From Alphaproteobacteria bacterium (lineage in GTDB: Bacteria; Pseudomonadota; Alphaproteobacteria; MPNO01): a stretch of 64,000 nucleotides of DNA. The notes beneath the pieces were generated by a model that saw nothing but the letters and a program-made list of their open reading frames with translations, did not search any database and had not been told where the DNA came from. A program made the position numbers and the translations under genes. Numbering within the stretch: the stretch's first letter is position 1; each line of letters begins with the position of its first letter. Positions 35,129 to 64,000 of the stretch are shown piece by piece. The stretch is taken from NCBI GenBank assembly GCA_965203455.1, contig CBDBCV010000010.1:99425-163424 (forward strand), in the 5' to 3' direction.

Positions 35129-35132
35129 GGCG

Positions 35133-35507: not shown

Positions 35508-35526
35508 GCGAAGCGGGAGCCGGGCG

Positions 35527-38381: not shown

Positions 38382-38392
38382 TTGCAGGGAGG

Positions 38393-39331: not shown

Positions 39332-39417
39332 CCCTCTCCCCGCTGGGGAGAGGGGACTCGCTCGCCGAACCCTCCTTACCTTCTCCCCTCCCGCTTGCGG
39401 GAGGGGTCGGGGGAGGG
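39320..39417. repeat. Inverted doublet of REP-like hairpin units
   Basis: Hairpins ccctctcccc[gct]ggggagaggg (39332-39354) and cccctcccgc[tt]gcgggagggg (39385-39406), each with a related CCCTC(A/C)CCC leader, in opposite orientation. Confidence 0.72.
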
Positions 39418-39437
39418 CGGAGCAAGCGCCGCCCCGC

Positions 39438-39468
39438 TTGACACCCCGGCTGTTCCCGCCCGTACAAT
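39438..39468 (+). promoter_or_regulatory. Candidate promoter of the TRAP operon
   Basis: TTGACA-N19-TACAAT (spacer longer than optimal). Confidence 0.4.
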
Positions 39469-39527
39469 CGGACCACAAATCGCGCTCGCCGGCCGGCGGC
39501 GGGCCTCTTCGCAGGGAAGGAACGGAA

Positions 39528-42369: not shown

Positions 42370-42436
42370 TCGGCTTCAGGAACTGTGCAATGCGTTTTCG
42401 ATCCCGGTAGTCTTTTCGCCCAATCGTGAGGCGCCC

Positions 42437-43513: not shown

Positions 43514-43695
43514 CCGGCAGAGCCTGACCCGGGCAGGACATATCGCCGCCACGGGCGGCATGGCAGCCCGGGCTATCGCCCGTTCGCGCGACAATCGAGT
43601 TCGACGGTGTTCCAGTCGAACACCAAGGAATCAATCGTGACCGAACCAAAGTCCTTCGCGGCGCTCCGCCATCCCGGCGGGCGCGCCTATCTGAG

Positions 43696-44679: not shown

Positions 44680-45047
44680 CGCCCGTCTCCCGGACCGGCT
44701 CAGCGACCGGACCCGCGTGACAAAAAATCACGCTCTACGATCAACTCCCCGATCTTGGCGTGAAGAGCCCGGACCTCGCTCTCGTGATCCCGCGCCCGGC
44801 GCTCACCTCCACCGGAAAAGACCTCCCCCAGACCCTCCATCGCCTGGCGCTTCCACACACCCACCTGGTTCGGATGCACCTGGTGCTTCGAGGCAATCTC
44901 CTGAAGCGTCCGATCACCCCGTAGCGCCTCCAAGGCTATCTTCGCCTTCAGCTCCCCCGAAAACCTGCGTCGCTTGCTCATCCGCATTCCTCCGTCACAC
45001 GGCGGAATACACCTTGACGACCTGTCCGATTTTGCGACGCCACCTCA
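43706..45047 (-). mobile_element. IS3-family insertion sequence, 1342 bp
   Basis: TG...CA ends; IRs TGAGGTGGCGTCG-N5-TCGGACAGG at both ends; 3-bp target duplication ATG (43703-43705 and 45048-45050); orfA/orfB. Confidence 0.93.
44700..44987 (-). CDS. IS3 transposase OrfA (HTH)
   Basis: KRRRFSGELKAKIALEA, HPNQVGVWK, LHAKIGELIVERDFL. Confidence 0.92.
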   Translation of the reverse strand: MRMSKRRRFSGELKAKIALEALRGDRTLQEIASKHQVHPNQVGVWKRQAMEGLGEVFSGGGERRARDHESEVRALHAKIGELIVERDFLSRGSGR

Positions 45048-46243
45048 ATGCTCGCCATGATGGCGGACAATATCGAGCACGTGATCAGCTACTGGATGAT
45101 CTACCAGAAGTTCGAATCGCCCGCGCTCGCCGGCTTCGCGGTGTTCTCCCACTGGGTGCCGTTTCTCCTGTTCTCGGTCTATGCCGGGGCGCTCGCCGAC
45201 CGGTTCGACCCGCGCCGGATCATCCAGTTCGGCATGGTCCTGTTCATGATCGTGTCGTCCGGCTGGGGCATCCTGTTCCTGACCGATGCCCTCGAGGTCT
45301 GGCACGCCGCCGTGCTCCTGGTCCTGCACGGCTTCGCGGGGGTGATCTGGGCGCCGGCGGCGCAGCTCCTGGTCCACGACATCGTCGGGGCCGCCCAGCT
45401 CCAGAGCGCGGTCCGGACGATCGCCTCGGGGCGGCAGCTCGGGATCCTGCTCGGGCCGGCGGTGGGCGGCGCGTTGATGATCGTCCTCGGACCCGCCTGG
45501 GGCATCCTGCTCAACGTCTTCATCTACCTGCCGCTGGCGCTGTGGCTGTGGAAGGCGCCCTACGGGCCCGCGTTCCGCTCCGGCCCGCGCCCGCCGGGAC
45601 GCGCGTTCGCGGGTTTCGCCGAGATCCTCGCGACGCTGCGGGACATCGCGTCCGACCGCACGATCGTCTCCATGCTCGTCCTGGCGGGTTGCGCCGCGTT
45701 CCTGGTGGGAAACGCGCACCAGGCGCAGATGCCGGAGTTCGCCCACCATCTGGGGCACGACGACGGCCTGCATTACAGCGCCCTGCTCGCCGCGACCGCG
45801 GCCGGGGCGCTGATGGCCGGGTTCGTCCTGGAGAGCCGGGGACTGCTGAGCGCCCGTCCGCGCACCGCCTTCGTCCTCGTGGTCCTCTGGTGCGGCGCGA
45901 TCGCGGGCTTCGCATCCTCGGAGAGCTATCCGCTGGCGCTCGTGCTGCTGTTCGCCGCCGGTTTTCTCGATCTCTCCTACAACTCGATGGCGATGACGCT
46001 GGTGCAGCTCAACGCGCCCGAGGCGATCCGCGGCCGCGTGGTCGGGCTCTACAACATGGCCTCGCTCGGCCTGCGGTCCTTCAGCGGCATCACCGTCGGC
46101 TTCGGCGGCAGCCTGATCGGCATCCACTGGTCGCTGGGCCTGAGCGCCGGGGCGCTGATGATCGTCGGCATCGTCCTGTTGTCGCTGACGCTGGGCGGCG
46201 GTCCGCTGCGCGAACCGGAGCCCGTCCGCGCCGCCCCCGACGG

Positions 46244-47476
46244 TCAGCCGTAGTCGCGCCGGTCGTCGATGATCTTGCCGTCGTTGGGCAGGCTGCCGGC
46301 GTCCACGAGCTCGACCGCGACCCTGAGCTTGCATTCGGACCGAAACGTCCCGGCCACCGTGTCCGCGAGGTCTTCCGGGCCGCCGCCGGTCTCGCATTGC
46401 AGCACCGGCGCGTCGATGCCGCCTTCCTCGTTCACGACCAGACGCATCCGGCCGATCTCCGGGTGGCGTTCCAGGACGCGGTCGATCTGCGCCGGGTCGA
46501 CGAACATGCCGCGGATCTTGGTCCGCTGGTCGGCGCGGCCGAGCCATCCCCGGATACGGGGCGCGGTGCGCCCGCACGGGCTCTGCCCCGGCATCGTCGC
46601 CGAGAGATCGCCGGTGGCGAAACGGAGCAGGGGGTAGTCCTCATCGAGGAGCGTCACCACCACCTCGCCGACTTCCCCTTCGGGCACCGGCGTGCCGGTT
46701 CCGGGACGGACGATCTCGACGACGATCTCCTCGTCGAGGATCATGCCTTCGCGGGCTTCCGACTCGTAGGCGATCAGACCGACATCGGCCGTGCCGTATG
46801 ATTGCAGGACGGCGATGCCACGGTCGTCGTATTCCTTGCGGAGCGGCGGGAGCAGGGCGCCGCCGCCGACCCCGCCGCGGCGGATCGAGGAGACGTCGGC
46901 GCCGGTCTCGTCCGCCTTGTCGAGGATGATCTTGAGGAAGTCGGGCGTGCCGGCGTAGCCGACCGGCCGGAAACGCCGGATCGCCTCGATCTGGCTCTCG
47001 GTCTGGCCGGTGCCGCCCGGAATGACCGGACAGCCGATCGCCGCCGCCGCGCCGTCGAACATCATGCCGGCCGGGGTGAAGTGGTAGGAGAAGCAGTTGA
47101 GCACGATGTCGCCCGCGCGGAACCCGGCGGCATGCAGCGCGCGGGCCATCCGCCAGTAATCCGGCCGCCGCCCCTGCGGTTCGGCGATGGGCCCCGGCGA
47201 CAGGAACAGGCGGGTCAGCTTCCCGTCGGCAAGCCGGTTGAGACCGCCGAAGGGCGGCATGTCGGCCTGGCGTTCCATCAGGTCGCCCTTGCGGATGACC
47301 GGGAGTTCCGCGAGCGCGTCCCGGCTCGCGATGTCGCCCGGCTCGACCCCCGACAGCAGCGCGGCCTGACCCGCGGTTTCCTTCGCGCGCGTCACCTGTC
47401 GCGGCAGCGCCTCCATCAGCCGGGCTTCCCGCTCGTCGGGAGAGCGCGTCTCGAGCGCGTCGAAATAGGCGGTCAT
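46244..47476 (-). CDS. Phenylacetate-CoA ligase (PaaK)-like acyl-CoA ligase
   Basis: LFLSPGP, CFSYHFTPAG, YGTADVG, RFATGDLS, GRADQRTKIRGMFV. Confidence 0.85.
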   Translation of the reverse strand: MTAYFDALETRSPDEREARLMEALPRQVTRAKETAGQAALLSGVEPGDIASRDALAELPVIRKGDLMERQADMPPFGGLNRLADGKLTRLFLSPGPIAEPQGRRPDYWRMARALHAAGFRAGDIVLNCFSYHFTPAGMMFDGAAAAIGCPVIPGGTGQTESQIEAIRRFRPVGYAGTPDFLKIILDKADETGADVSSIRRGGVGGGALLPPLRKEYDDRGIAVLQSYGTADVGLIAYESEAREGMILDEEIVVEIVRPGTGTPVPEGEVGEVVVTLLDEDYPLLRFATGDLSATMPGQSPCGRTAPRIRGWLGRADQRTKIRGMFVDPAQIDRVLERHPEIGRMRLVVNEEGGIDAPVLQCETGGGPEDLADTVAGTFRSECKLRVAVELVDAGSLPNDGKIIDDRRDYG

Positions 47477-47480
47477 CGGT

Positions 47481-48293
47481 TCAGGCGAGCCAGCGCTTGC
47501 GGCGGCGATAGGATTTGACGTCCCGGTAGCTCTTGCGGCCGGAGGAGGAGAGGCCGAGATAGAACTCCTTCACGTCCTCGTTCTCGCGCAGCGTCGAAGC
47601 CTCGCCGTCGAGGACCACGCGGCCGTTCTCCAGGATGTAGCCGTAGCGCGCATAGCGCAGCGCCATGTTGGTGTTCTGCTCGGCGAGCAGGATGGTCACG
47701 CCCTCCTCCTCGTTGAGGCGCGACACGATCCCGAAGATTTCTTCCACGAGCTGCGGCGCGAGGCCCATCGAGGGCTCGTCGAGCAGCATCATCTTGGGGC
47801 GTGTCATCAGCGCGCGGGCGATCGCGGTCATCTGCTGCTCGCCGCCCGAGGTGTAGCCCGCCTGCGCCTTGCGGCGTTCCTTGAGGCGCGGGAAATAGCG
47901 GTAGACGAGGTCGAGATCGTCGGCGAAGTTCTTTTTGTCGCCCCGGATATAGGCGCCGGTCAGCAGATTTTCCTCGACCGTCAGGTGCTCGAAGCAGTGG
48001 CGGCCTTCCATCACCTGGACGACGCCGCGGGTGACGAGGTCGTGGGCCGAGAGCTTCTCGATCCGCTCGTCGCGGTACTCGATGGTGCCCTTGGTGACGT
48101 CCCCCCGCTCGGCGCGGAGCAGGTTGGAGATCGCCTTGAGCGTGGTCGTCTTGCCGGCCCCGTTGGCGCCGAGGAGGGCGACGATGCCCCCCTCGGGAAC
48201 GTGGAAGGAAACGCCCTTCAGGACCAGGATCACCCGGTCGTAGATCACCTCAATGTTGTTCACATTGAGAAGGGCGCTTCCGTTCTCCGCCAT
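47481..48293 (-). CDS. ABC ATP-binding protein (LivF-like)
   Basis: GANGAGKTT, TSGGEQQM, LLDEPSMGLAP. Confidence 0.92.
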   Translation of the reverse strand: MAENGSALLNVNNIEVIYDRVILVLKGVSFHVPEGGIVALLGANGAGKTTTLKAISNLLRAERGDVTKGTIEYRDERIEKLSAHDLVTRGVVQVMEGRHCFEHLTVEENLLTGAYIRGDKKNFADDLDLVYRYFPRLKERRKAQAGYTSGGEQQMTAIARALMTRPKMMLLDEPSMGLAPQLVEEIFGIVSRLNEEEGVTILLAEQNTNMALRYARYGYILENGRVVLDGEASTLRENEDVKEFYLGLSSSGRKSYRDVKSYRRRKRWLA

Positions 48294-48324
48294 GCCAACG
48301 GTTCCGCTGCTACGCGCGAAGGAC

Positions 48325-49650
48325 TTACCCCTCCTTGGAGCAATCGCGGGGCGTGATGTTGTTCTCCTTCGCGTACTTGGCGGCTTCCGCCTCGACCTGC
48401 TTGCGCACGATGTCGTACATCGGCGTGTACCACTTCGAGATCAGCTTCCACTGCTTGCCGTCCCACTGCTGGAAGATCACCGGGCCGCCGCCCTCGTGAT
48501 CCTCGCAGGTGATGCGGTGGGCCTGCATGAAGTCCTTGAAGCCGAGCTTGGTCAGCTTGTCCTGGGTCAGGTTGAGGTTCTCCATGCCCCAGCGGACCTG
48601 CTCGCCGGTCATCGGCTTGTTGCCGTACTTGCCCATCGCGGTGCGGATGGCCTCGGTGTCGTAGACCATGTTGGTCAGGCCGCGGTTGTAGAGCACCTCG
48701 CCCCAGTTGTTCTTCTTCGCCGCCTCGACATCGCCCTTGTAGATCGTCTTGAGGATCTGCTGGTGGATGTCGTAGCCGGAGCCGACGCCGTGGAAGTTGC
48801 CCGCCTTGTACCCCTTGGCCGCCTCGCCGGCCGGGCGGACGTCGCTCTCGGAACCGGACCACCAGACCCCGATGAACTTGTCCATCGGGAACTTGATGGC
48901 GGCCGCTTCCTTGATCGCGACCTGGTTCATCACGCCCCAGCCCCACATGAAGATGTAGTCGGGCTTCAGACGGCGGACCTGCAGCCAGGTGGATTTCTGC
49001 TCCTGGCCCGGATTGTCGACCGCGAGCAGGTCGAGCTTGTAGCCGTGCTTCTCCGACAGGATCTTCAGGGTCGGGATCGGTTCCTTGCCGTAGGCGCTGT
49101 TGTGGTAGATCAGCGTGATCTTCTTGCCCTTGAGCTTGTCGAGACCGCCCTCCTGCTCGCCGACATACTTGATGAACGCGGTCGCCTGGCTCCAGTAGCT
49201 GGTCGGCGCGGTGAACGCCCACTTGAAGACGCGCCCGTCGCCCGCCGCCGTCCGGCCGTAGCCCATCGAATGGATCGGCACCTTGTCGACGAAGGCCTTC
49301 GGGATCAGCTGATAGGTGATGCCGGTGCTGAACGGGTTGACGATCGCGGCGCCGGTCGGACCCTTCTTCTTCAGCTTCTCATAGCACTCGACGCCGAGCT
49401 TGGTGTTGTACTTGGTCTCGCATTCCTCCCAGACGATCTTGACGCCGTTGATCCCGCCGTCGCGCGCGTTGAGAAGTTTCAGATAGTCGACCATGCCGTT
49501 CGCCGCCGGGATGCCGTTCGGCGCATAGGGCCCGGTGCGGTATACCAAGAGCGGGATGAACATTTCCCCCGCCGCCATCGCGGTGACCGGAACGGCGGGC
49601 AGACCGACGACCGCCGCGGTCAAAATCAAGCCCAGTTTCTTGAGATTCAT
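48325..49650 (-). CDS. ABC substrate-binding protein (HAAT/LivJ fold)
   Basis: Signal peptide, YRTGPYAPNG, NARDGGINGV, HNSAYGKE. Confidence 0.88.
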   Translation of the reverse strand: MNLKKLGLILTAAVVGLPAVPVTAMAAGEMFIPLLVYRTGPYAPNGIPAANGMVDYLKLLNARDGGINGVKIVWEECETKYNTKLGVECYEKLKKKGPTGAAIVNPFSTGITYQLIPKAFVDKVPIHSMGYGRTAAGDGRVFKWAFTAPTSYWSQATAFIKYVGEQEGGLDKLKGKKITLIYHNSAYGKEPIPTLKILSEKHGYKLDLLAVDNPGQEQKSTWLQVRRLKPDYIFMWGWGVMNQVAIKEAAAIKFPMDKFIGVWWSGSESDVRPAGEAAKGYKAGNFHGVGSGYDIHQQILKTIYKGDVEAAKKNNWGEVLYNRGLTNMVYDTEAIRTAMGKYGNKPMTGEQVRWGMENLNLTQDKLTKLGFKDFMQAHRITCEDHEGGGPVIFQQWDGKQWKLISKWYTPMYDIVRKQVEAEAAKYAKENNITPRDCSKEG

Positions 49651-49796
49651 GACGTCCTCCCTTGAGGTGATTGACGTTTACGCCCGCCGGAGCATTCCCG
49701 GCCCTTACTCGATTCACACATCGGCACGACCGACGCACTACCCTCGGCACGAGGCCGGAATGCGCGAGAAAACGCTATCACGCGCCCGAATCCGGC

Positions 49797-50873
49797 TCAA
49801 TAGGGGAACGGCCATCGCCGCAGCTTTTCCTTGGCGATCTGCCACAGGCGGGCGAGACCGGCCGGCTCGAAGATCAGGAAAACGACGATCAGCGAGCCGA
49901 AGATCATGACCTCCAGGTGCTTCTGGAAATCGACCGGCATCGAGAGCCCGACGAGCTGCGGCGCGTTGGTCAGGAAGATCGGCAGCAGCCAGATGAAGGC
50001 GGCCCCGAGATAGGCGCCCAGGATGCTTCCCAGCCCGCCGATGATGATCATGAACAGGACTTCGAAGGACACGAAGATGTCGAACGCCTCGGTCTCGGCG
50101 CTGCCGAGATAGGAGAACAGCAGCAGCGCGCCCGCCACCCCGCAATAGAACGAGCTGATCGCGAACGCGAGCAGCTTGTTGGGGAGCAGGCGGATGCCGA
50201 TGATCTCGGCGGCGATATCCATGTCCCGGATCGCCATCCAGTGCCGTCCGACCCTGCCGCGCACCAGGTTCTTGGCCAGCAGGCCGCCCAGAATGCAGAA
50301 GGTGAGAACCAGCAGATAGCGCGTTTCCGCGGTCGCCGTCGGGCCGGTCAGCATGATGCCCGCGACCTCGCGCGGCGGCGCGATTATGGTGCCGCTGGAG
50401 TTGTAATTGTACCACCAGGGCACGCGATTGAACATCCAGATGAGGAAAAATTGCGCCGCCAGCGTGGCGACCGCGAGATAAAATCCCTTGATCCGCAGGC
50501 TCGGCAGCCCGAACACGATGCCGATCAGCGCGGCCGAGACGCCGGACAGGATAAAAACGACGATGATGTTGAGCTCGGGAAAGCCGGTCGTGAGCTTGTA
50601 GGCGGAATAAGCGCCGACCGCCATGAAGGCGCCGGTGCCCAACGACAGCTGGCCGGCATAGCCGGTGAGAATGTTCAGACCGACCGCGGCGATCGCGAAT
50701 ATCAGCAGCGGAATCAGCACCGCCTGCAGCAGATATTCCGACGCGATCAGGGGAATGACGATATAGGCGAACGCGATTATCGCGAACAGGAAAACGCGGT
50801 CCTGGAAGATCGGAAAGATCGCCTGGTCGGCGGCGTAGGTGGTCTTGAACTGGCCTGTTTCGCGGTAGAGCAT
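49797..50873 (-). CDS. ABC permease (LivM-like)
   Basis: GLNILTGYAGQLSLG, LRIKGFYLAVATL, WMAIRD, IIIGGLGS. Confidence 0.92.
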   Translation of the reverse strand: MLYRETGQFKTTYAADQAIFPIFQDRVFLFAIIAFAYIVIPLIASEYLLQAVLIPLLIFAIAAVGLNILTGYAGQLSLGTGAFMAVGAYSAYKLTTGFPELNIIVVFILSGVSAALIGIVFGLPSLRIKGFYLAVATLAAQFFLIWMFNRVPWWYNYNSSGTIIAPPREVAGIMLTGPTATAETRYLLVLTFCILGGLLAKNLVRGRVGRHWMAIRDMDIAAEIIGIRLLPNKLLAFAISSFYCGVAGALLLFSYLGSAETEAFDIFVSFEVLFMIIIGGLGSILGAYLGAAFIWLLPIFLTNAPQLVGLSMPVDFQKHLEVMIFGSLIVVFLIFEPAGLARLWQIAKEKLRRWPFPY

Positions 50874-50876
50874 GAA

Positions 50877-51815
50877 TCAGACCCTCTCGATGATGCGCTC
50901 GCCGAACAGGCCCTGCGGCCTGACGAACAGGAAGGCCAGCGCGAGCACGTAGGCGAACCAGTTCTCGATGGCGCCGCCGACGGCGGGGCCCCAGTAGACC
51001 TCGGCGATCTTCTCACCGACGCCGATGATCAGGCCGCCGACGATCGCCCCCGGCACCGAGGTGAAGCCGCCCAGGATCAGCACCGGCAGGGCCTTGAGCG
51101 CGATCAGCGAAAGCGAGAACTGCACCCCGCTCTTCGCGCCCCAGACGATCCCGGCGACGAGCGCCACGATGCCCGCGACCGACCAGACGATGATCCAGAT
51201 CTTCTTGAGCGGAATGCCCACCGACAGCGCCGCCTGGTGGTCGTCGGCGACCGCCCGGAGCGCCCGCCCGGTCGGCGTGTACTGGAAGAAGAACGCGAGG
51301 CCCGTCACCAGCAGGGCGCAGGCGAGCGCGGCGATCAGGTCGAAGCTGTTGAACAGCATGCCGGCGACATCGACCGGAACGTCCGGGATTCCGATGTCGA
51401 GCTTCTTGACGTTGGAGCCCCACAACGTCTCGCCGAAACCCTCCAGGAAGAAGGTCAGCCCGATCGTCGACATGAACAGGATGATGTCCGGCTGGTTGAT
51501 CAGGTGGCGCAGCACCAGGAGCTCGACCAGATAGGCGAGGGCCACCATCGCGGCCATGGTGACGATGAAGGCGAGCCAGACCGGCAGGCCGAGCTCCATC
51601 AGCCCGACCAGGGTGAGCGCGGCGAACAGCACCATCGCGCCCTGCGCGAAGTTGAACACGCCGGACGCCTTGAAGATCAGCACGAAGCCGAGCGCCACCA
51701 GCGAATAGAGCACGCCGGTCAGAACGCCGTTGAACACGACCTCGCCGAAAAACACCGGGAAGTCCTGCGCGATCATGACGAACGGCGTGATCGTGACCGA
51801 CTCGAGAAACTCCAT
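50877..51815 (-). CDS. ABC permease (LivH-like)
   Basis: YSLVALGFVLIFKASGVFNFAQG, GRALRAVADD, ILGGFTSVPG. Confidence 0.92.
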   Translation of the reverse strand: MEFLESVTITPFVMIAQDFPVFFGEVVFNGVLTGVLYSLVALGFVLIFKASGVFNFAQGAMVLFAALTLVGLMELGLPVWLAFIVTMAAMVALAYLVELLVLRHLINQPDIILFMSTIGLTFFLEGFGETLWGSNVKKLDIGIPDVPVDVAGMLFNSFDLIAALACALLVTGLAFFFQYTPTGRALRAVADDHQAALSVGIPLKKIWIIVWSVAGIVALVAGIVWGAKSGVQFSLSLIALKALPVLILGGFTSVPGAIVGGLIIGVGEKIAEVYWGPAVGGAIENWFAYVLALAFLFVRPQGLFGERIIERV

Positions 51816-51839
51816 GCCCGTTTCCCCGCTCGCCCGCCG

Positions 51840-52637
51840 TCAGTCGCGGACCACGCCGAGATAGGCGGCGATCACCTCTTCGTCGCCGCGGACCTCGTCG
51901 GGCGAGCCGTCCGCGATCAGGCGGCCGTAATCGAGAACGACGACCCGGTCGGAAATGTCCATCACCACGCCCATGTCGTGCTCGATCAGCGCGATCGTCG
52001 TTCCGAACTCGTCGTTAACGTCGAGCACGAACCGGCACATGTCCTCCTTCTCCTCGGAGTTCATGCCGGCCATCGGCTCGTCGAGCAGGAGCAGGTCGGG
52101 CTCGGCGGCGAGCGCCCGGCCGAGCTCGACGCGCTTCTGCAGCCCGTAGGGCAGCCGTCCGACCGGAACCCGCCGGATAGCCTCGATCTCGAGAAACTCG
52201 ATGACCCGCTCGACATGCGCCCGGTGCTCCAGCTCCTCCCGCCGCGCCGGCCCGAGATAGAGCGCCTGCCACAGGAAGTTGCGGCGCATCATCGTGTTGC
52301 GCCCGGTCATGATGTTGTCGAGCGTGCTCATCCCCCTGAACAGGGCGATGTTCTGGAAGGTCCGGGCGATCCCCTGCCGCGCCGCCTGGTCCGGCCGCAT
52401 CCGCGTCCGGGTCTCGCCCTTGTAGGTGATGGTGCCGTCGTCCGGGTGGTAGAAGCCGTTGATCACGTTGAGCATCGACGACTTGCCGGCGCCGTTGGGG
52501 CCGATGATCGCGCGGATCTCCCCCTCGCGGATGTCGAAGCTCACGTCGTCGAGCACCGTGACGCCGCCGAAGGCAAGCGAGATTCCGTCGAGGCGAAGGA
52601 TCGGAGCCTGCGCGGTTGCCTCTTCCGCTGCGCTCAC
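51840..52637 (-). CDS. ABC ATP-binding protein (LivG-like)
   Basis: GPNGAGKSS, ARTFQN, LPYGLQKRVE, LLDEP, IEHDM. GTG overlaps the ligase stop. Confidence 0.92.
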   Translation of the reverse strand: MSAAEEATAQAPILRLDGISLAFGGVTVLDDVSFDIREGEIRAIIGPNGAGKSSMLNVINGFYHPDDGTITYKGETRTRMRPDQAARQGIARTFQNIALFRGMSTLDNIMTGRNTMMRRNFLWQALYLGPARREELEHRAHVERVIEFLEIEAIRRVPVGRLPYGLQKRVELGRALAAEPDLLLLDEPMAGMNSEEKEDMCRFVLDVNDEFGTTIALIEHDMGVVMDISDRVVVLDYGRLIADGSPDEVRGDEEVIAAYLGVVRD

Positions 52638-54601
52638 GCGGCGCTCCTCTCGGTTTCCGCCGGGGCGATGTCGCGGATCTGCAGATCGGCGCGGACCGTG
52701 CCCTTGCGGCCGTCCTCGAACGTGACCTCGGTCTCGATCCCGCAGCGGTCCTGCCCGGAATAGAGGGCCTCGATCAGGGAGCCGTACTTGTCGGAGACGT
52801 GGCGCCGGCGGACCTTGCGGGTGCGCGTCAGCTCTCCGTCGTCGGCGTCGAGCTGCTTGTGGAGCACGAGGAAGCGCCTGATCTGCGCGCCGGCGAGGTC
52901 GGCGTCCGCGGCGAGGTCGCGGTTCACCTGCTCCACCCGGCCCTGGATGATGTCGTAGACCCGCGGCAGGCCGGCCAGCTCCTGGTAGCTGGCGTAGGAA
53001 ATGCCGTTGCGCTCGGCCCAGTCGCCCATCGCCTCGAGGTCGATGTTGATGAAGGCGGTCACGCGATCGCGCTCGTCGCCGAAGCAGACGGCCTCGAAGA
53101 TGTCGGGAAAGAACTTGAGCTTGTTCTCGATATATTTGGGGGCGAACAGCGTGCCGTCGGTCAGGCGGCCCACGTCCTTCGCCCGGTCGATGATCTTGAG
53201 ATGCCCCTCGCCGTCGATGAAGCCGGCGTCGCCGGTGCGGCACCAGCCGTCCCCGGTCTTGGTCTCCGCGGTCGCTTCCGGGTTGCGGAAATACTCGACG
53301 AACACGCCGGGGCTGCGGAACTGGACCTCGTTGTCCTCGATCCTGAGCTCGACCTCCGCCGCGGGCCGCCCGACGGTGTCCGACCGGACCTCCCCGTTCG
53401 GCTGGATGGTGATGAACACGCTCGCCTCGGTCATGCCGTAGAGCTGCTTCAGGTTGAACCCGATGCTGCGGTAGAAGTCGAAAATGTCGGGCCCGATCGC
53501 CTCGCCCGCGGTGTAGCCGAGCTTCACCCGGGTCAGGCCGAGCGTGTTGAGGAGCGGGCGGAAGATCAGCAGCGAGCCCAGCGCGTAGTGGAGGCGGGCG
53601 GCGGGCCCCACCGCCTCGCCGTCGAGGATCCGCTTGCCGTGGACCTTGGCGATTTCGAGGAAGTGGAAGAACAGCTTCCGCTTCACCCAGCCCGAATCCT
53701 GGATGCGGATCATCACCGTGGTCAGGATGTTCTCGAAGATCCGGGGCGGCGCGAAGAAATAGGTCGGCCCCACCTCCCACAGATCGTTGAGCACGGTCTC
53801 CGCCGATTCCGGGCAGGAAACGCAGAAGCCCGCCACCAGCGCCTGGCCGCAGGAGAACATGTGATCGCCCACCCAGGCCATCGGCAGGTAGGCGAGCACC
53901 TCGTCGGTCTCGGTGAGCCCCTCCTGCCGCACCGAGTTCAGCGCGCTGACCAGCACGTTGCGATAGGAAAGGACGACGCCTTTCGGGTTTCCCGTCGTGC
54001 CGGAGGTGTAGAGGATGACCGACGTGTCGTCCGCCGCGCCGCGCCCGACCTCCCCGTCGTAGAACCCCGGATGTTCCGCGTCGTAAGCGCGGCCCCGCCG
54101 CGTCAAATCCTCGGTGCTGCACAGGAACGCCTCGCGGTAGTTCCTGAGCCCGCGCGGGTCGTGGTAGATCACCCCCTCGATGGTCGGGCACTCGTCCTTG
54201 ATCTCGAGGACCTTGTCGACCTGCTCCTGGTCCTCCGCGAAGACGAACCGCACCTCGGCGTTGTTCAGCACGTAGCGCGTCTCGTCGGCGACCGAATCCT
54301 GGTAGATCGGCACCGGCACGCCGCCGAGCGACTGGATCGCGAGGATGGCGTTGTAGAGGACCGGCCGGTTGTCGCCGATGATCGACACCCGGTCGCCGCG
54401 CTCGAGGCCGAGCGTCTTGAGCCCGCAGGCGATCTCCCGCGCCTGCGCGGCGGCCTCGCCCCAGGTCACGGTCTCCCAGATGCCGAGATGCTTCTCCCTC
54501 AAACAGGGCCGGTCGCCCCGGATCTCGGCGTTGCGCCGGAGCAGCTTGGGCGAGGTGTCGTAGCGCGAAAGATCCGGGAGCGCGTTCGCGGCGCCGGTCA
54601 T
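52634..54601 (-). CDS. Long-chain acyl-CoA synthetase (AMP-binding)
   Basis: YTSGTTGNPKG, YGMTEAS, TGDAG, IIDRAKD, ELTRTRKVRR. GAGGAG RBS before ATG 54601. Confidence 0.92.
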   Translation of the reverse strand: MTGAANALPDLSRYDTSPKLLRRNAEIRGDRPCLREKHLGIWETVTWGEAAAQAREIACGLKTLGLERGDRVSIIGDNRPVLYNAILAIQSLGGVPVPIYQDSVADETRYVLNNAEVRFVFAEDQEQVDKVLEIKDECPTIEGVIYHDPRGLRNYREAFLCSTEDLTRRGRAYDAEHPGFYDGEVGRGAADDTSVILYTSGTTGNPKGVVLSYRNVLVSALNSVRQEGLTETDEVLAYLPMAWVGDHMFSCGQALVAGFCVSCPESAETVLNDLWEVGPTYFFAPPRIFENILTTVMIRIQDSGWVKRKLFFHFLEIAKVHGKRILDGEAVGPAARLHYALGSLLIFRPLLNTLGLTRVKLGYTAGEAIGPDIFDFYRSIGFNLKQLYGMTEASVFITIQPNGEVRSDTVGRPAAEVELRIEDNEVQFRSPGVFVEYFRNPEATAETKTGDGWCRTGDAGFIDGEGHLKIIDRAKDVGRLTDGTLFAPKYIENKLKFFPDIFEAVCFGDERDRVTAFINIDLEAMGDWAERNGISYASYQELAGLPRVYDIIQGRVEQVNRDLAADADLAGAQIRRFLVLHKQLDADDGELTRTRKVRRRHVSDKYGSLIEALYSGQDRCGIETEVTFEDGRKGTVRADLQIRDIAPAETERSAA

Positions 54602-54898: not shown

Positions 54899-55070
54899 TC
54901 GATATTCCCGAGGGTCGGGGGCTTTCTTTCGACTCCGAAGCCGGCCCCTAAGTAAGCGTCTGGCGTGACCGCCCTTGTGGCGAGACGGCTTGGAGCCGCA
55001 GTCTGTGGTGAGGTTCCAGAGGTCGATAGTGTCCATTATCGGCTAATGGACACTATCTTAGGGGGCTGCG

Positions 55071-55418
55071 GTGCCACGTCGGGTACGCCGGTTCTGGTCG
55101 GACGACGAGAAGCGCCGGATCGTGGCGCAGAGCTACGCTCCCGGTGTCTCGGTGTCGGTTGTGGCGCGCCGCTATGACGTCAACGCCAACCTGATCTTCA
55201 CCTGGCGGCGCGATCCCCGTTACAGGCCGGCGGCCGATGCCGGGGAGGCGCCGTCCTTCCTGCCGGTGGAGGTGGTGCCCGATGCGCCGCCGTTGGAGCC
55301 GGCCGCGGCATCGGACGGTCGGATCGAGATCGCGTTGTCGAACGGCCACCGGGTGAGCGCGTTCGGGTCGTTCGACGCGGACGCGCTGTGCCGGGTGGTG
55401 CGGGCGCTTGGCGGATGA
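55071..55418 (+). CDS. tnpA: IS66 TnpA (HTH)
   Basis: [42 protein letters not shown]. Confidence 0.9.
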
Positions 55419-55762
55419 TCCCGGTTCCCTCCTCGACCCGGGTATGGCTGGCCTGCGGCGTGACCGACATGCGCAAGGGGTTCCCCGGTCTCGCGGCGCA
55501 GGCGGAGCGGGTATTGAAGGCGGATCCGCATTGCGGCCATCTCTTCATCTACCGCGGCCGCCGGGGCGACCTGATCAAGATGATCTGGTGGGACGGCCAG
55601 GGTGCGTGCCTGTTCTCGAAGCGTCTGGAGCGCGGCCGCTTCGTGTGGCCGTCGGCATCGGAAGGGAAGGTGTCGGTGACGCCGGCGCAGCTGTCGATGC
55701 TGCTTGAGGGGATCGACTGGCGGGCGCCGGTTCGCACCTGGAGACCGCTGGCCGCGGGCTGA
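55415..55762 (+). CDS. tnpB: IS66 TnpB accessory protein
   Basis: [42 protein letters not shown]. Confidence 0.95.
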
Positions 55763-55836
55763 TTCACCGTTTATAAACAATGGGTTGACTGTCATTCGGG
55801 CTTCCCTTTGTCGGCCCCTTCGGGTAGGATGCGGCC

Positions 55837-58800
55837 ATGCTCGAAGCGGCCCATTCCCTGCCCGACGACATCGCCGCGTTGAAGGCGATGGTGCTGGCCT
55901 CGCGGGCCGAACTGGCGGCACGGGACGCCGAGCTGCGCAACCGCGATCTGTTGATCGAGAAGCTCAGGCACCAGCTTGCGGGTCTGCGGCGGCAGCGCTT
56001 CGGCGTCACCTCGGAGGCCCTCGACCAGCTTGAGCTCGGGCTGGAGGACGAGGAGATCGCGCGGGCGGCCGAGGCGCCGACCGAGCCGACGCCCGCCACG
56101 AAGAAGCAGCCGAAGCGCCGTCCCCTGCCGGACCACCTGCCGCGCGAGGAGACGGTTCTCGCGCCGGGCGAGCGCTGCGCGGACTGCGGCGGCCGTCTCA
56201 AGCGGCTCGGCGAGGATGTGACGGAGGAGCTGGAGTACATCCCCGGCCGCTTCGTGGTGAAGCGCATCGTCCGTCCGCGCCTGGCCTGCGGCGGCTGCGA
56301 GAAGTTCCACCAGGCGCCGCTGCCGCCGCGACCGATCGAGCGCGGCCGACCGGGCCCCGGCCTTCTGGCGCATGTGCTGGTCTCGAAGTATTGCGATCAC
56401 CGTGTGTCCTGAAGCACCGCCATGAAAGGAGGTGCGCAACTGCAAGAGAGATGAGGGTAGGCCCCTCGGGGTCGACGATCAGGCGTCGGTCTCAAACCAC
56501 CACGAGCTGCTGTCGTAAAGAGCGATGGTGGTGAGCGTCGTGGAAACGGCGGGACGACGATCTCGTCAGGTGAGGTCCGGGGAGACGAGCGAAAGCGAAC
56601 CGCCGATGAACTGCCGAAAGCGTATGGTCGATGTCAGAACCGGGGGTGGTGGTCACTCCGGGACAAGCATGGGCGGAGTCCTGGAGTCCGGCCCACGCGG
56701 CATCCGGCTCGAAGGCGGCGTGAACCCGGAACAGGCTTTCTTGCGGAACAGGAGAACCTGTCGTCCCGATGCCAAGGGAGACGGCCAACCGGGCAGCCCC
56801 CGGAAGGCTCAGAGTACCGATGCGGGGCACAGGGGCAGAACAGCCCGTAGTAGGGATGAAGGCGCTGTAATGGCGCTGGACCGAAGGGGCTGTGGTGTTC
56901 AGCCGCTGCCGTCGGCCAACTGGTGACAGGAGGAGCCGGATGACAGGGGCAAAGCCGTTCCCGATAGCAAAGAGGGAAGTCTGGGAAGCCTTCAAGCATG
57001 TGAAGGCAAACCGGGGAGCGGCTGGAGTAGATGGGCAGACGGTCGAGAGTCTGGAGGAACGGCTTGGTCCGGAACTCTACAAGCTCTGGAATCGCATGTC
57101 CTCAGGCAGCTATATGCCGCCTCCGGTTCGCAGGGTGAACATCCCCAAGGAGGGCGGCGGGAAGCGCCCGTTGGGCATACCGACGGTCACGGACCGCATC
57201 GCTCAGGAGGTTGTTCGCCGACATCTGGAGCCCTTGTTGGAACCGATTTTCCATGAGGACTCATACGGATATCGGCCGAAGCGATCCGCCATTGACGCCA
57301 TCCGGACAGCGCGTCGGCGATGCTGGCGCTACGACTGGGTGCTGGACATGGACATCAAGGGGTTCTTCGACAACATCGACCACGAGTTGCTGCTGAAGGC
57401 CGTTCGTCACCATACGGACTGCCGGTGGGTGCTGCTCTATGTCGAGCGCTGGTTGAAGGCTCCCGTGATCGAGGAGGACGGCACCGTTGTCGCACGGGAC
57501 AGGGGCACGCCACAGGGCGGGGTAATTTCGCCAGTATTGTCCAACCTGTTCCTGCACTATGCGTTCGATCAATGGATGAAAAGGTCGATGCCGCATGTTC
57601 CGTTCGAACGGTATGCGGACGATATAATCTGCCATTGTCGAACGGAGGAGGCGGCAAAGACCCTCTGGCGGCGGGTTGCGGACCGATTGGCCGAGTGCGG
57701 CCTGGAGGTCCATCCGCAGAAGACCAAGGTGGTCTACTGCAAGGATACCAACCGCAAGGCGGACTACCCGACGGTCGCGTTCGACTTCCTGGGCTACCGT
57801 TTCCAGCCAAGGTTCGCGGCGTGGCGCGGCGGGTTGTTCGGGGTCTCGTTCCTTCCGGCTGCCAGCCCGACTGCGCTCAAGGCGTTTCGGCGCCGCGTGC
57901 GACAGTGGCGTTTGCAACGGCGTAGCGACAAGGCACTGCTTGACCTTGCCCGCATGTTTCATCGCGAAATTGCAGGGTGGATCGGCTACTTCGGCGCATT
58001 CTACAAGTCGGCGCTCTATCCGACCCTTCGTCTGATAGACGCCCACTTGCAGCGATGGGCAATGCGGAAGTTCAAACGCTTCCGACAACGACCGCGTCAG
58101 GCTCGTCTCTGGCTTGCCAGAATCGCGAAAGCGGAGCCGTGGCGGTTCGCCCATTGGACCCTTGTGCACGGGCAGGGCCGGACGCTGGGAGCCGTATGAG
58201 CTGAGAGGTTCACGTACGGTTCTGGGAGCGCGTGGGGGTGAGATTCCCCCGCGCGACTCGCTTGCCGCTCTACCGCCAGTCCCGCATCTTCGCCCGCGAC
58301 GGCGTCGAGCTCGACCGCTCGACGCTCGCCGGCTGGGTCGGCAAGGCGACGGCGCTGCTGGAGCCCCTGGCCGATGCGATCGGGCGCCATGTGCTGGAAG
58401 GACAAGCCCTGTTCGCCGACGACACCCCGGTCAAGCTGCTGGCGCCGGGAACCGGCAAAACGGCGACCGGCCGGGCCTGGACCTACGTGCGGGACGAGCG
58501 GCCCTGGGCTGGCGAGGCGCCGCCGGCGGCCTGGTACCGCTTCTCGGCCGACCGCAAGGCGGCGCATCCGAAGGCGCATCTTGAAGGCTTCGCCGGCTGG
58601 ATGCACTCGGACGGCTATGCCGGGTTCGGTGCGCTGGCGCGCGCCGGGCCGGTCCGCGAGGTGGCCTGTCTGGCGCATGTGCGACGCAAGTTCTTCGACG
58701 TCCATGCCGCCCAGGGCTCGGCGATCGCCGCCGAGGCGCTGGAACGGATCGCCGCCCTCTACGCTATCGAGAAGGAGGCCCGCGGGCAGCCGCCCGAGAA

Positions 58801-59233
58801 CCGCGCGGCCATCCGCCAGGCCAAGGCCGCGCCGTGCCTCGACGAGCTGGAGCGGTGGCTGCAATCGCAGCTGCCCAGAATCTCCGCCAAGACCCCGCTG
58901 GCAGCGGCGATCCGTCATGCCCTGACCCGGATGAAGCGCCTTCGACCCTATCTCGAGCACGGCTTCCTCGAGATCGACAACAACCCCGCCGAACGCGCAA
59001 TGAGGCCGATCGCGCTCGGCCGCAAGAACTATCTCTTCATGGGCTCGGCCAGCGGCGGCAGGGCCGCCGCCATCGCCTACACCCTGATCGAGACCGCCAG
59101 GCTCAACGATGTCGATCCGCAGGCCTGGCTTGCTCAGGTCCTCGAACGCATCCCCGACTACAGGATCAACCGCATCGACGATCTGCTGCCGTGGAACACC
59201 GCGCCCGCAGAAGATCGGGAAGCCGCCGACTGA
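55837..59233 (+). CDS. tnpC: IS66 transposase TnpC split by the intron (exon 1 55837-56401, exon 2 58263-59233)
   Basis: Joined exons total 1536 nt (511 aa) and read KYCDH|LPLYRQS; CADC...CGGC zinc motif; ADDTPV, SDGY, DNNPAERAMR. Confidence 0.9.
56402..58262 (+). mobile_element. Group II intron, RmInt1-like (bacterial class D), 1861 nt
   Basis: 5' GTGTG; domain V GAGCCGTATGAG...GTTCACGTACGGTTC (58189-58222); domain VI with bulged A58256; RT ORF; removal restores the tnpC frame. Confidence 0.93.
56940..58199 (+). CDS. ltrA: Group II intron reverse transcriptase/maturase (no C-terminal endonuclease domain)
   Basis: 419 aa; GAAGVDG, RPLGIPTVTDRIAQ, SYGYRP, DIKGFFD, GTPQGGVISP, RYADD, FDFLGY, domain X GWIGYF. 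Confidence 0.95.
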   Translation: MTGAKPFPIAKREVWEAFKHVKANRGAAGVDGQTVESLEERLGPELYKLWNRMSSGSYMPPPVRRVNIPKEGGGKRPLGIPTVTDRIAQEVVRRHLEPLLEPIFHEDSYGYRPKRSAIDAIRTARRRCWRYDWVLDMDIKGFFDNIDHELLLKAVRHHTDCRWVLLYVERWLKAPVIEEDGTVVARDRGTPQGGVISPVLSNLFLHYAFDQWMKRSMPHVPFERYADDIICHCRTEEAAKTLWRRVADRLAECGLEVHPQKTKVVYCKDTNRKADYPTVAFDFLGYRFQPRFAAWRGGLFGVSFLPAASPTALKAFRRRVRQWRLQRRSDKALLDLARMFHREIAGWIGYFGAFYKSALYPTLRLIDAHLQRWAMRKFKRFRQRPRQARLWLARIAKAEPWRFAHWTLVHGQGRTLGAV

Positions 59234-59264
59234 CCACGCAGGGGCGGTCACGCCGGACGCTTAC

Positions 59265-60825
59265 GGTCCATCAGCTGGCGGCGGTGAACGAGGACAAGCG
59301 TGTTCGTCCCGCGCGCGGCGATGACCGAGGCCGCGACCACCGTCTTGCCGAAGCCGGTCGCCGCCGCGAGCACGCCGGTCTCGTGCGCCAGCAGCGCGGC
59401 AGCGGCGGATTTCTGCTCGGAGGTCAACGCGCCCAGAAAGGCGGTCTCCACCGGTCGACCCGGATTGCGCTCGTCGCGGACGTCGAGCCCGACACCGTGT
59501 TCCGCCAGCATCGACCCCATCTCGTCGCGGCAGCCGCGCGGCAGGGCCACGTGGTTCGGGAGCAGTTCGGCGCAGGCGACGATGCGCGGAATGCCCCAGG
59601 TCGACCGCCGCATCGCCTGGGCGGCATGGAAGGCCGGGTTCCGGAACGTAGCCAGACGCACCAGGCGGTCGACCAGACCCGGCGGCAGGCCGGCGCGCGG
59701 AACGTAAAGCCGGTCCGCCAGCACGGCCCCGATCCGCTCCGGCAGCGGTCCGGAGAGGGGCGGCAGGGCTCGGCGTCGCGACGGCGGCACGGCCCAAGGC
59801 TCTTCGCCACCGTCCGTTTCGGGGTCTTCCAGCGGGAGGCGCAGGCCGACGATCCGGCCCCGAAGGGCGGCCTCGCCGACGATCGCTTCCGCTTCCGCCT
59901 CCGGCAGGCGCCGCAGCGACGACAGATACGCCACTGGTCGGCATGGGGTTCGAGGTTCCCGTCGAGGAACACGCTGTTGCCGTCCGCGCGCGGCCGGCCC
60001 TGGAGGGGCAGCGCGATCAGGTTGCCGAACCCGCCCTCGGGCACCGTGTCCTGGCTCGGGAAGAACCGGTCGTAGGAACCGAACCCGATGTCCGGATGGC
60101 GGCGCCATCGCCTCGGTCAGCAGATGCGAGCCCAGCCGCCGCGCCCGCGCCGCGGACACCGGTTCGGCGAAGAAGAGCCAGACATGGCCGCCATGGCCCG
60201 AACGCGAACGCTCCAGCGCCGCCGGCACCCCCTTCGACCGGCAGGCGTCCAAGAAGGCCCCGGCGTCGCGGCGCCACGCCGCCTTGTCGAAGTCGGCCGC
60301 GAGGAACCGGCAGGTCCCGTCCGGAAGCAGGGGATAGACGCCGACGGTATGGCGGCCGCGCAGGTGGGCGGCGATTTCGGCGTTGGTCACCGGCAGGAAG
60401 GCCCGGTTGGGGCAGGCGCCGCAACGCACGCGCGGCTTGGCGCACAAGCCGGGCTTCCACTCGTTGGCGCAGGCCGGCGCGTAGCCGGCCTTGCCCGTCC
60501 GGGCATTCTCCCAGCGCCGCGGGAACACGTCCTCCCGGCCGGCAAACAGCGCGCGGAACAGCGCAATCTTCATATCCGGAGGCGAGCGGTCCGTCACCGG
60601 CATCCCGGCCGGATCGCGGTACGGCACGGCCGGGCGGGCCCGTTCCAGTTCCGCCAGCCGGGTCTCAAGGGACGCCCGCTCCTTGGCAAGGCCGGCAAGC
60701 CGGACGCGAATCCGCGCGGCCTCATCGGCCTCGTCCCAGCCGGTCGGGACGCTCCCGCCGCCGCCCGCCATGCCAGGCAGGTCGTGCTGCGCGGACGAAT
60801 CCGGAGCCGGCCGGCCGGCCGTCAT
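59265..60825 (-). pseudogene. AEP primase (TOTE-type) / SF2 helicase fusion, doubly frameshifted and truncated by IS66
   Basis: LFAGREDVF, four-Cys cluster, AADFD, ERSRSGHGGHVW, (shifted frame) YDRFFPSQD...GFGNLIALPLQG, Walker A AATGFGKT, LVLVHRRQL, then the IS66 end. Confidence 0.8.
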
Positions 60826-61688
60826 CCCGCCCCTTCTCCCGGTCCCGCAGGCCCCGCCTCCAGGCGGGCGGCAAGCCTGTCGGCACGCGGATTGCCCATG
60901 TCGCACAGGACGGCGACCGCGACTGGCGCGAATTCCGGGCGGCGCATCGCGCAGCGCCCGAGAGACACGATCGCCGCGTCGTCGCCGAGCGCGCCAAGCG
61001 CCTCGACGAGCGCGGTCGAGGGCGCGACCGTCAATTCGGCGATCGGCACGTCCCGGCCCGAGGCATCGCCCCGATGCGCCAGCGCGGCCGCCGCCAGGCG
61101 GATCGGAAGATCCCGGTCGGACAGCCCCTCCCGGAGCCGGGGCGCCGGTACCTTCGCTCCGGGCGCAAGGTCGAAGGCCGCCCGGCGCAACGCCGGGTCG
61201 TCATGGTCGGGAAAATCCGCGACGAAGGCGGCAGGAAGGACCACCCTGGCATCGGCGGTGGACCGCAGCGCAATCGGCAGCAGCGAGGCAGGCAGGCCCG
61301 CTGAAAGAACGATCCGCCTCAGCGCGGCCCGCGTCCCGGAACCCTCCAGCCGCGCCAGCGTCTCCAGCATGGCGCACTGTTCCCGCAGCGGCCGGTGGAT
61401 GCCGAAACCGTGAAATCGGCGCCAAAGCGCCTCCAGCGCCGGAACCGCCGCCGGCAGCGGCCGCGCGACGACCTCTGCGCACAGCGCGTCGATCTCCAAC
61501 GGCCCCGCCTCCGCAAACCGTCCGGCCAGTTCGTCGTCGCCGAGCGAGGCCGGCGCGGGTAGCCCCGGCCGGACCGGATGTTCCCGCCGGCTGCGGACAT
61601 CGGCCCGGCCGCGGCCGTCGAACAGATCCGGCTGGCGATCCGCCTCCAGGCAGTCCCCGGGCGAGGGGTCGGGCACAGGAACGGGCAT
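60822..61688 (-). CDS. HEAT-like repeat protein (start uncertain; frame open to 61844)
   Basis: DHDDPALRRAAFDLA, SDRDLPIRLAAAALAHRGD, LVEALGALGDD repeats; its TGA overlaps the ATG of the primase-helicase gene. Confidence 0.6.
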   Translation of the reverse strand: MPVPVPDPSPGDCLEADRQPDLFDGRGRADVRSRREHPVRPGLPAPASLGDDELAGRFAEAGPLEIDALCAEVVARPLPAAVPALEALWRRFHGFGIHRPLREQCAMLETLARLEGSGTRAALRRIVLSAGLPASLLPIALRSTADARVVLPAAFVADFPDHDDPALRRAAFDLAPGAKVPAPRLREGLSDRDLPIRLAAAALAHRGDASGRDVPIAELTVAPSTALVEALGALGDDAAIVSLGRCAMRRPEFAPVAVAVLCDMGNPRADRLAARLEAGPAGPGEGAG

Positions 61689-63458: not shown

Positions 63459-63535
63459 GTCGCGCGGCCGGCGATTTTTTGCCGATCATCCCCCTGGCGC
63501 GGCATGCCGTATGGCGCGACAATCTGGGTGAGAGC

Positions 63536-64000
63536 TGTGCGTCAATCAGGATGAGATTCCCGGCGGCAGCGGCGAGTTGATGATTGCCGCGCGGGGGGTG
63601 GATTGCAAGCGGTTTCCGGTTTTGATTGTCGCGGCGCGACAAGCAGTGTTTTCGGGAAGGGTTTTGATTGTCGCGGCAGGCCGTCGGGTCGGAGAAGAGA
63701 CGGCCCGCGGAGACGATCCCCGCGGGCCCTGATTGTCGTGGCCGCTCTACCTGAGCAGGCGGCGGCTCAGTCCTTGGTGTTTTTCTTGGTTGCGTAGCTT
63801 GGCGGCCGGCCGGCCTTTCGCTTGCCTCTGTCGAGAGCGGCGCGGCGGCGGTAGCTCTCGATGTTCATCTCGAGGATGGTGGCGTGGTGGACGAGGCGGT
63901 CGACGGCAGCCACCGCGGTTGTTTCGTCCGGGAACACCTTTCCCCACTCGCCGAAGGGCTGGTTTGCGGTGATGAGCAGGGATCGCCGCTCGTAGCGCGC
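63536..64000 (-). mobile_element. Right end of an IS21-family element (continues beyond window)
   Basis: istB 3' end; repeated GGTTTTGATTGTCGCGGC (63618-63635, 63660-63677) plus variants; probable TG terminus at 63536. Confidence 0.75.
63767..64000 (-). CDS. istB: IS21 helper ATPase IstB, C-terminal part (not in ORF track)
   Basis: Manual translation: ARYERRSLLITANQPFGEWGKVFPDETTAVAAVDRLVHHATILEMNIESYRRR...TKD*. Confidence 0.92.
   Translation of the reverse strand, partial: ARYERRSLLITANQPFGEWGKVFPDETTAVAAVDRLVHHATILEMNIESYRRRAALDRGKRKAGRPPSYATKKNTKD

Follow-up and report, generated by a model that had tools for sequence, protein, structure and literature searches.

Group II introns of the RmInt1 type move by a retrohoming pathway that is biased toward the lagging strand (PMC5894124), and the class D to which RmInt1 belongs is marked by an IEP (intron-encoded protein) bearing the C-terminal signature LX3AX3PXLF[V/A]HW (PMC4615759). 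Splicing and retrohoming have been demonstrated for the class D intron Sr.md.I1 of S. medicae, which lies in an open reading frame (ORF) annotated as IS66 (PMC4615759). Table S1 of Toro & Martinez-Abarca (2013) lists the class D intron Pa.de.I1 (CP000491/NC_008688, positions 19065-20924) with the entry ‘Transposase IS66’, and also a Methylocystis class D intron in IS66 (PMC3552965). E. coli and Shigella carry E.c.I3, a group II intron targeting IS679; a genome-wide survey covered its homing sites, both occupied and free (PMC3522654). Here we describe an intron of this kind in a 64,000-nt stretch of an alphaproteobacterial contig (CBDBCV010000010.1), which is called the window throughout and to which all positions refer. 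Positions 56402-58262 very probably represent a structurally intact class D intron (RmInt1-like, IIB-type and endonuclease-less) in the transposase gene tnpC of an IS66 insertion sequence (IS), and a new, about 80% identical member of the Pa.de.I1 lineage at the same codon. Concept, class and even site are already published, and the window copy is a clean, ordinary example.

An intron within tnpC

When position 56401 is joined to 58263, the sequence reads GAT CAC C^TG CCG (the caret marks the insertion point) and encodes a TnpC of 511 aa (...SKYCDH^LPLYRQ...). The boundaries 56402-58262 and the restored H-L-P given in the initial annotation are thus correct, and the DDE domain is whole after joining. 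The intron is inserted in the tnpC sense strand between bases 1 and 2 of the Leu codon in K-Y-x-D-H^L-P-L-Y-R-Q. The first exon comprises residues 1-188, with the leucine-zipper and zinc-finger domains, and the first base of codon 189. Spliced TnpC matches the DDE_Tnp_IS66 profile over positions 2-283 with 334 bits, while exon 2 alone matches only positions 22-283 with 303 bits, so the intron lies inside the catalytic domain.

The Rfam models for domain I and for domains V and VI are both matched over their full length, which bears out the earlier description as an apparently intact group II intron. As read from the sequence, domain V carries the AGC triad and domain VI a bulged A at 58256, the putative branch point, 7 nt from the 3′ end. 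The IEP gene is preceded by a Shine-Dalgarno sequence (GGAGGAG, 56930-56936) and encodes the YADD motif of reverse transcriptase (RT). Only RVT_1 and GIIM exceed the Pfam cut-offs in the 419 aa, and no D/En (HNH) endonuclease domain was found in them, in agreement with the initial view of an intact RT without endonuclease. The C-terminus of the IEP (LARIAKAEPWRFAHW) fits the class D signature, except that R replaces L before F. Compared with six members of its clade, the IEP has a ratio of non-synonymous to synonymous substitutions (dN/dS) of 0.10-0.17; it appears to be under purifying selection across the clade, which fits recent activity. Its stop codon (58197-58199) lies within the 5′ strand of domain V, and the final IEP codons share their sequence with the catalytic hairpin (58189-58199).

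The best plasmid match, at 80.6% identity over the whole intron, is located at positions 19065-20924 of plasmid 1 of Paracoccus denitrificans PD1222, and these are the coordinates listed for Pa.de.I1. In an IEP tree that included no classes other than D, the window IEP forms a clade (support 96/87) with those of six loci, namely L007, L004, L003, L005, L083 and L006. By phylogeny, the support for class D is indirect and comes from the sister Pa.de.I1, which was classed D by Toro & Martinez-Abarca. The endonuclease-less IEP, the class D motif, the recognition by the third exon-binding site described below and this class D sister together sustain the RmInt1-type reading made initially.

The element that hosts the intron (54952-59264) is, on its genes and termini, a 2.45-kb IS66-family IS: the genes tnpA, tnpB and tnpC are present, as are 26-nt terminal inverted repeats beginning with GTAAGCG. 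The 8-bp target-site duplication of IS66 was not found, as the flanks 54944-54951 and 59265-59272 differ (GCCCCTAA and GGTCCATC, respectively). This suggests later recombination or deletion and leaves the assignment of the genes to the IS66 family unaffected. Annotators should treat the split tnpC as one interrupted gene and not as a pair of pseudogene fragments. The features are collected in Table 1.

Table 1. Coordinates of the IS66 element, its intron and the predicted exon-intron pairing sites in the window.
Feature	Position	Strand	Details
IS66 left inverted repeat	54952..54977	.	GTAAGCGTCTGGCGTGACCGCCCTTG; 26 nt, 92% complementary to 59239-59264
tnpA, IS66 accessory protein, 115 aa	55071..55418	+	Pfam HTH_Tnp_1, 45 bits
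tnpB, IS66 Orf2-like, 115 aa	55415..55762	+	Pfam TnpB_IS66, 129.8 bits; ATGA overlap with tnpA
tnpC exon 1	55837..56401	+	Pfam LZ_Tnp_IS66 and zf-IS66; ends ...SKYCDH
IBS2 position (-13 to -9), UAUUG	56389..56393	+	3/5 pairs with conserved EBS2 GCGUA
IBS1 (-7 to -1), GAUCACC	56395..56401	+	7/7 pairs with EBS1
Group II intron, 1861 nt, bacterial class D / IIB-like	56402..58262	+	starts GUGUG; RF01999 and RF00029
Domain I 5′ part (Rfam group-II-D1D4-2, RF01999)	56453..56571	+	112.9 bits, E 3e-23, model 1-118/118
EBS2 (GCGUA), by covariation	56620..56624	+	top 5-mer versus exon -9 to -13
EBS1 hairpin	56640..56661	+	EBS1 = 56648-56654 (GGUGGUC), in the hairpin loop
EBS3 (A)	56712	+	pairs with IBS3 T58263 (exon +1)
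IEP, 419 aa, RT and maturase (X)	56940..58199	+	RVT_1 150.9 bits, GIIM 54.5 bits
Domains V and VI (RF00029, Intron_gpII)	58187..58262	+	56.8 bits, model positions 1-77/77
tnpC exon 2 (LPLYRQ... to stop)	58263..59233	+	DDE_Tnp_IS66 302.8 bits, and DDE_Tnp_IS66_C
IS66 right inverted repeat	59239..59264	.	partner of 54952-54977

At its right end, the IS extends over the final codons of a 552-aa ORF on the minus strand (59248-60906), which it seems to truncate. Six public sequencing runs (X1-X6) contain the stretch. Contigs of X1, X4 and X5 connect position 59265 to unrelated sequence (...GAGCCGGGCGAGCCACT), and position 54794 is likewise connected to other DNA in X1, X3 and X4. The neighbourhood of the IS66 element therefore varies among strains.

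Exon-binding sites and the preferred target

About 90 related loci were collected, with intron boundaries placed by profile searches, and a covariation test over about 50 introns was used to determine which intron columns pair with each intron’s own exons. Exon-binding site 1 (EBS1, GGUGGUC) pairs with the intron-binding site 1 (IBS1, GAUCACC) over all seven positions, including one G-U. Over 51 distinct introns, 84% of the cells in these columns are paired, and compensatory cases occur in L007 (A/U), in L026 (GUGAGUC/GACUCGC) and in a relative with exon GGAAAUA and loop UAUUUCC. Over the 51 introns, the six stem pairs of the EBS1 hairpin are formed in 82% of cases, with compensatory pair types, whereas slid controls reach 22-65%; RNAalifold also predicts the hairpin at 56640-56661. 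Both the hairpin and its pairing with the last seven exon bases, which had been proposed from the window alone, are thereby confirmed by covariation.

The second site had been placed wrongly. In a scan of 5-mers across intron positions 150-300, the conserved EBS2 was found to be GCGUA (56620-56624), paired at 0.82 in the set of introns at the IS66 site, with compensatory changes in L026 (CAGAA/UUCUG), L083 (GCAUA/UAUGC) and L006 (UCGUA/UACGG). The pentamer CGAUG (56629-56633), proposed in the initial annotation, can pair 5/5 with UAUUG in the window copy only; its columns pair 1-4/5 in 12 other IS66-site introns (0.54, near background), and it was rejected. The column of A56712 (EBS3) forms a Watson-Crick pair with exon position +1 in 88% of 50 introns, versus 58% for the runner-up column. 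All four pair types were seen (A-T 25, T-A 11, G-C 7, C-G 1), which supports the IIB-type recognition of the 3′ exon by a single EBS3 base.

Because the conserved EBS2 is GCGUA and pairs 3/5 with UAUUG here, the optimal target would be ...UA[C/U]GC-N-GAUCACC^U, encoding K-Y-A-D-H^L. By its predicted pairing, the K-Y-C-D-H site of the window is slightly off-optimal for the intron. For this lineage, the comparative set offers a clean ‘mutagenesis’, made by nature, of all three sites EBS1, EBS2 and EBS3.

Spread among IS66 elements, mobility and expression

The same codon position is occupied in the window and in a wide range of relatives: Paracoccus denitrificans (L004/L081, Pa.de.I1), a Stappiaceae metagenome-assembled genome (MAG; L003), a Gemmatimonadota MAG (L005), Telmatospirillum (L006), a MAG labelled Thermodesulfobacteriota (L007, with an IEP 95% identical to that of the window), three loci of another alphaproteobacterial MAG (CAWFUF01; L026/28/29), Bradyrhizobium septentrionale (L083), Mycetohabitans (L084), Janthinobacterium (L085) and a Sedimentisphaerales MAG (L048), as well as L002 and L087+L001. 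A Burkholderia plasmid also matches over the exon-intron junction. The lineage shares a sense-strand insertion in tnpC at the H/L boundary of K[YF]xDH^LPLYRQ. The initial proposal that a conserved IS66 motif is the target holds, since highly dissimilar IS66 elements are occupied at the same codon; to judge from the occupied sites, it is evidently the DNA of this motif that the intron recognises, and not one particular IS.

The closest copies are found in MAG CBDBGH01, which contains two introns at least 99.7% identical to that of the window, each within a further IS66 lineage and each with an IEP identical at 100%. Their host TnpC proteins are 43% and 38% identical to the window TnpC, and the sites read SKYADH^TPLYRQ and AKFADH^QPFYRQ. 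Mismatches affect IBS2 in the window, IBS1 and IBS3 in L087+L001, and IBS2 and IBS3 in L086/L002, and only EBS1 is reliably paired across the IS66 lineages of the three near-identical copies. An exact 36-nt scan of genome contigs with the intron 5′ end yielded two places only, both in CBDBGH01 and thus outside the window, and a search for contigs encoding the exact IEP (419 or 435 aa) returned no record. An apparent ‘co-conversion’ of the exons flanking L001 and L002 was discarded as a BLAST extension into the conserved motif, the exons being about 70-75% identical. By targeting DNA that encodes an invariant protein motif, a retroelement can move among divergent insertion sequences.

Unlike the window intron, which is uninterrupted, both CBDBGH01 copies are each cut by an IS21-family insertion (L001:110-2899 and L002:4277-6891; IstB 220-237 bits, and an IstA-like protein with rve/Mu C-terminal domain), at intron position 437/438 in one copy and about 1814 in the other. 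One end of the L001 insert is matched at 88.7% identity by the last 490 nt of the window (63510-64000).

Both occupied and empty sites can be seen in the raw sequence data. The 5′ junction is spanned by exact contigs from X5 (2635 nt, 55800-58262), X3 (56149-57064) and X4 (55729-56640), the 3′ junction by exact contigs from X3 (58233-59265) and from X2 and X5 (58233 to about 58727). The exon-intron-exon form of this IS type therefore exists in the raw data, which does not address its chromosomal location. Run X1 contains long exact contigs and a uniform depth of 6-9x over 20 kb of the window (34001-54000), and therefore behaves as DNA. In this run, the exon-1 unitig stops exactly at 56401 and the exon-2 unitig begins exactly at 58263, and one contig, at a depth of 293, joins 56401 to 58263, its 30 nt to either side of the joint matching at ≥98% identity. 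We considered X1 as RNA, with this joint as spliced mRNA, and rejected it on the long exact contigs and uniform depth. The same IS therefore occurs in X1 in both states, with and without the intron. Depth is about 600 over the exons and about 835 over the intron, versus 293 for the intron-less joint; the surplus over the intron fits copies in other contexts, and the intron unitig begins at 56394, the point of divergence between window-type and L002-type exons. As contigs lose rare forms, the absence of the joint from runs other than X1 says little. Taken together, the near-identical copies in two IS66 lineages and the intron-less junction point to recent mobility, as far as sequence comparison can tell.

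Two further observations concern these runs. Window positions 43339-45339 reach 500-900x in X1 between flanks of 6-9x and represent a multi-copy repeat, probably an IS. X4 is probably DNA as well, given its 58-kb contigs, and its very high depth over the 5′ part of the intron is more likely due to many intron fragments or copies than to RNA accumulation.

Evidence of expression comes from a relative. A variant 96-98% identical to the window intron occurs in sponge and other metatranscriptomes and carries the L007-type changes in EBS1 (A) and EBS3 (C). In metatranscriptome X27, a 314-nt contig (depth 35) represents an ORF-less form of this variant, in which 56964-58167 is replaced by the 6 nt TATTGT and the complete intron 3′ end is joined head-to-tail to the first base of the intron. 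A mini-intron of about 660 nt without the ORF, either circular as RNA or arranged in tandem, head-to-tail copies, could account for this contig. The contig indicates that the lineage is expressed in nature and is uninformative on the window copy. The EBS3 of the X27 variant, C, would pair with the intron’s own first G, as reported for tandem insertions of RmInt2. A mini-intron without ORF, about 640 nt long, is also found at L031:127-762 upstream of a full-length copy, with the 5′ and domain V-VI profiles about 450 nt apart; ORF-less derivatives of this family therefore exist as DNA.

It is possible, and we put it forward tentatively, that the DNA encoding K[YF]xDH^LPLYRQ is a convergent ‘safe harbour’ that several class D sublineages captured independently. 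Well-supported branches separate the Janthinobacterium (L085) and Sedimentisphaerales (L048) introns from the Pa.de.I1 clade, and a single clade for the nine IS66-site IEPs is rejected by an approximately unbiased (AU) test (p 4e-16; the group was named after the tree had been seen). Since these IEPs do not form one clade, there was either repeated capture of the site or a retargeting of several sublineages away from it. If the former is true, the lineage would be a family-wide parasite and suppressor of IS66 elements.

A related sublineage is inserted right after R-Y-A-D-D or F-A-D-D codons, that is, in the YADD motif of other RT genes, judged by the 5′ exons of L082 (2481-2500), L018, L032, L035, L036, L047, L049 and L052. 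The upstream coding sequence in L082 is annotated as reverse transcriptase domain-containing. These introns home into the (intron) RT genes of other retroelements. The IBS1 of this sublineage, GAUGAYU, is a few bases from GAUCACC; small EBS changes may thus shift introns between conserved protein-coding motifs. Composite introns were also encountered. At L026:4142-6083 (and in L028 and L029, all from MAG CAWFUF01), the intron is interrupted in domains V/VI by about 1.9 kb holding another group II domain I (RF02003, 105.9 bits, L026:4163-4298), a twintron within an intron within an IS. Bacteroides luti has two introns head to tail (L076:18-3790), the 3′ ‘exon’ of the first being GTGTGCC..., the start of the next, and L080 contains two intron 5′ ends 2.9 kb apart.

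Alternative readings and comparison with known introns

By analogy with RmInt1, the intron would be transcribed together with tnpA-tnpB-tnpC, and the IEP would assist its excision and remain bound to the intron RNA as a ribonucleoprotein. The RNA is predicted to recognise single-stranded target DNA through EBS1/IBS1 (7 bp), EBS2/IBS2 (up to 5 bp, with 3 at this site) and EBS3/IBS3 (1 bp), and reverse splicing into the target would occur at replication forks, as in RmInt1. Because there is no endonuclease, nascent lagging-strand DNA would serve as the primer for cDNA synthesis. GC skew over the window is weak and mixed and does not separate the leading from the lagging strand. Movement among IS66 lineages that are only about 40% identical would be possible because the IBS sequences encode an invariant protein motif.

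While the intron is present, TnpC would be made only from spliced mRNA, and the initial annotation went further: IS66 transposition would depend on splicing, with the intron as a regulatory device, and the intron would be a candidate for a new targetron scaffold. The junction inside the DDE domain and the sense orientation of the intron in the operon agree with such a device. In RmInt1, however, only about 0.07% of the exons are ligated in vivo (PMC3123198), and this poor splicing has been read as a brake that limits the spread of the host IS, and not as a gate (PMC4238363); by the same analogy, the window intron should lower IS66 transposition more than switch it. As a scaffold, it adds little, because RmInt1, of the same class, has already been engineered as a targeting vector (PMC4075523), and both lineage and site are catalogued (PMC3552965). 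We therefore regard this combined reading as unlikely.

Several points weigh against an intact and recently mobile class D intron. At the window site, EBS2 pairs at 3/5 positions, and by this measure the site is not the intron’s optimal one. The class D placement does not derive from a class-level tree, and the RmInt2 IEP, 55% identical, sits on a long branch. Without a target-site duplication, the host IS may have rearranged after insertion. Among the RNA runs that share words with the intron, only the 96-98% identical relative was found, with no ligated-exon junction, and both CBDBGH01 copies are dead. These points, with the exception of the class placement, also lend themselves to a reading in which the window copy looks intact but is immobile, a recent fossil that merely inactivates tnpC in a genome where the lineage is dying out, in line with the selection-driven extinction model for bacterial group II introns. 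We consider this quite improbable: three copies share an identical, open ORF, all ribozyme motifs are present, and the purifying selection on the IEP together with occupied and empty sites side by side in X1 fits recent activity. Moreover, introns of the RmInt1 type tolerate EBS2 mismatches, as found experimentally for RmInt2 and Sr.md.I1 (PMC4615759).

An assembly artefact, in which the intron was mis-joined into this IS copy, is barely credible: the MAG is IS-rich, IS and intron stand at about 100x the depth of the flanking chromosome in X1 and unitigs break at both intron ends, but exact contigs span the 5′ (X3, X4, X5) and 3′ (X2, X3, X5) junctions.

An intact member of the Pa.de.I1 lineage thus remains the preferred reading, and the known introns can be compared with it directly. 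A scan seeded with the RmInt2 IEP yielded no Sinorhizobium loci among the best 80. Two loci considered as RmInt1 or Sr.md.I1 were rejected: H13/L082 is a different class D intron, located in the YADD codons of another RT gene, and in H19/L088 an IS630 element interrupts the intron. With RmInt1, RmInt2 and Sr.md.I1, the window intron shares a 419-aa RT-X IEP without D/En and with the class D C-terminal motif (PMC4615759, PMC3123198, PMC5894124), an IIB-like RNA in which EBS1 spans 7 nt, EBS2 spans 5 nt and has a 1-nt linker, and EBS3 is a single base in the coordination loop, and homing into insertion sequences. The Sr.md.I1 site has T at -15 and C at +1 (PMC4615759), whereas the window site has A at -15 and T at +1; by these two bases, the Sr.md.I1 site is probably at a different position. 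RmInt1 and RmInt2 differ in their targets, ISRm2011-2 and ISRm17 inverted repeats, respectively, and the identity of the RmInt2 IEP to that of the window is the 55% given above. E.c.I3, likened here by description, has IS-specific homing in common with the window intron but belongs to another intron lineage; its target IS679 is an IS66 family member.

Pa.de.I1 remains the closest described relative. It has the same insertion codon (KYADH^LPLYRQ) and the same IEP clade, a length of 1860 nt compared to 1861 nt, and an identical EBS1 (GGUGGUC), EBS2 (GCGUA) and EBS3 (A), with 80.6% nucleotide identity over the whole intron and 78% identity of the IEP. It differs in its host IS66 element, in its organism and in its exon, which pairs with EBS2 at 5/5 positions versus 3/5 in the window, and the divergence of about 20% makes a new name due under the 95% rule of the database. 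The window intron thus adds one more member, apparently active by its sequence and from a sponge- or coral-associated alphaproteobacterial lineage, to the catalogued class D lineage of Pa.de.I1.

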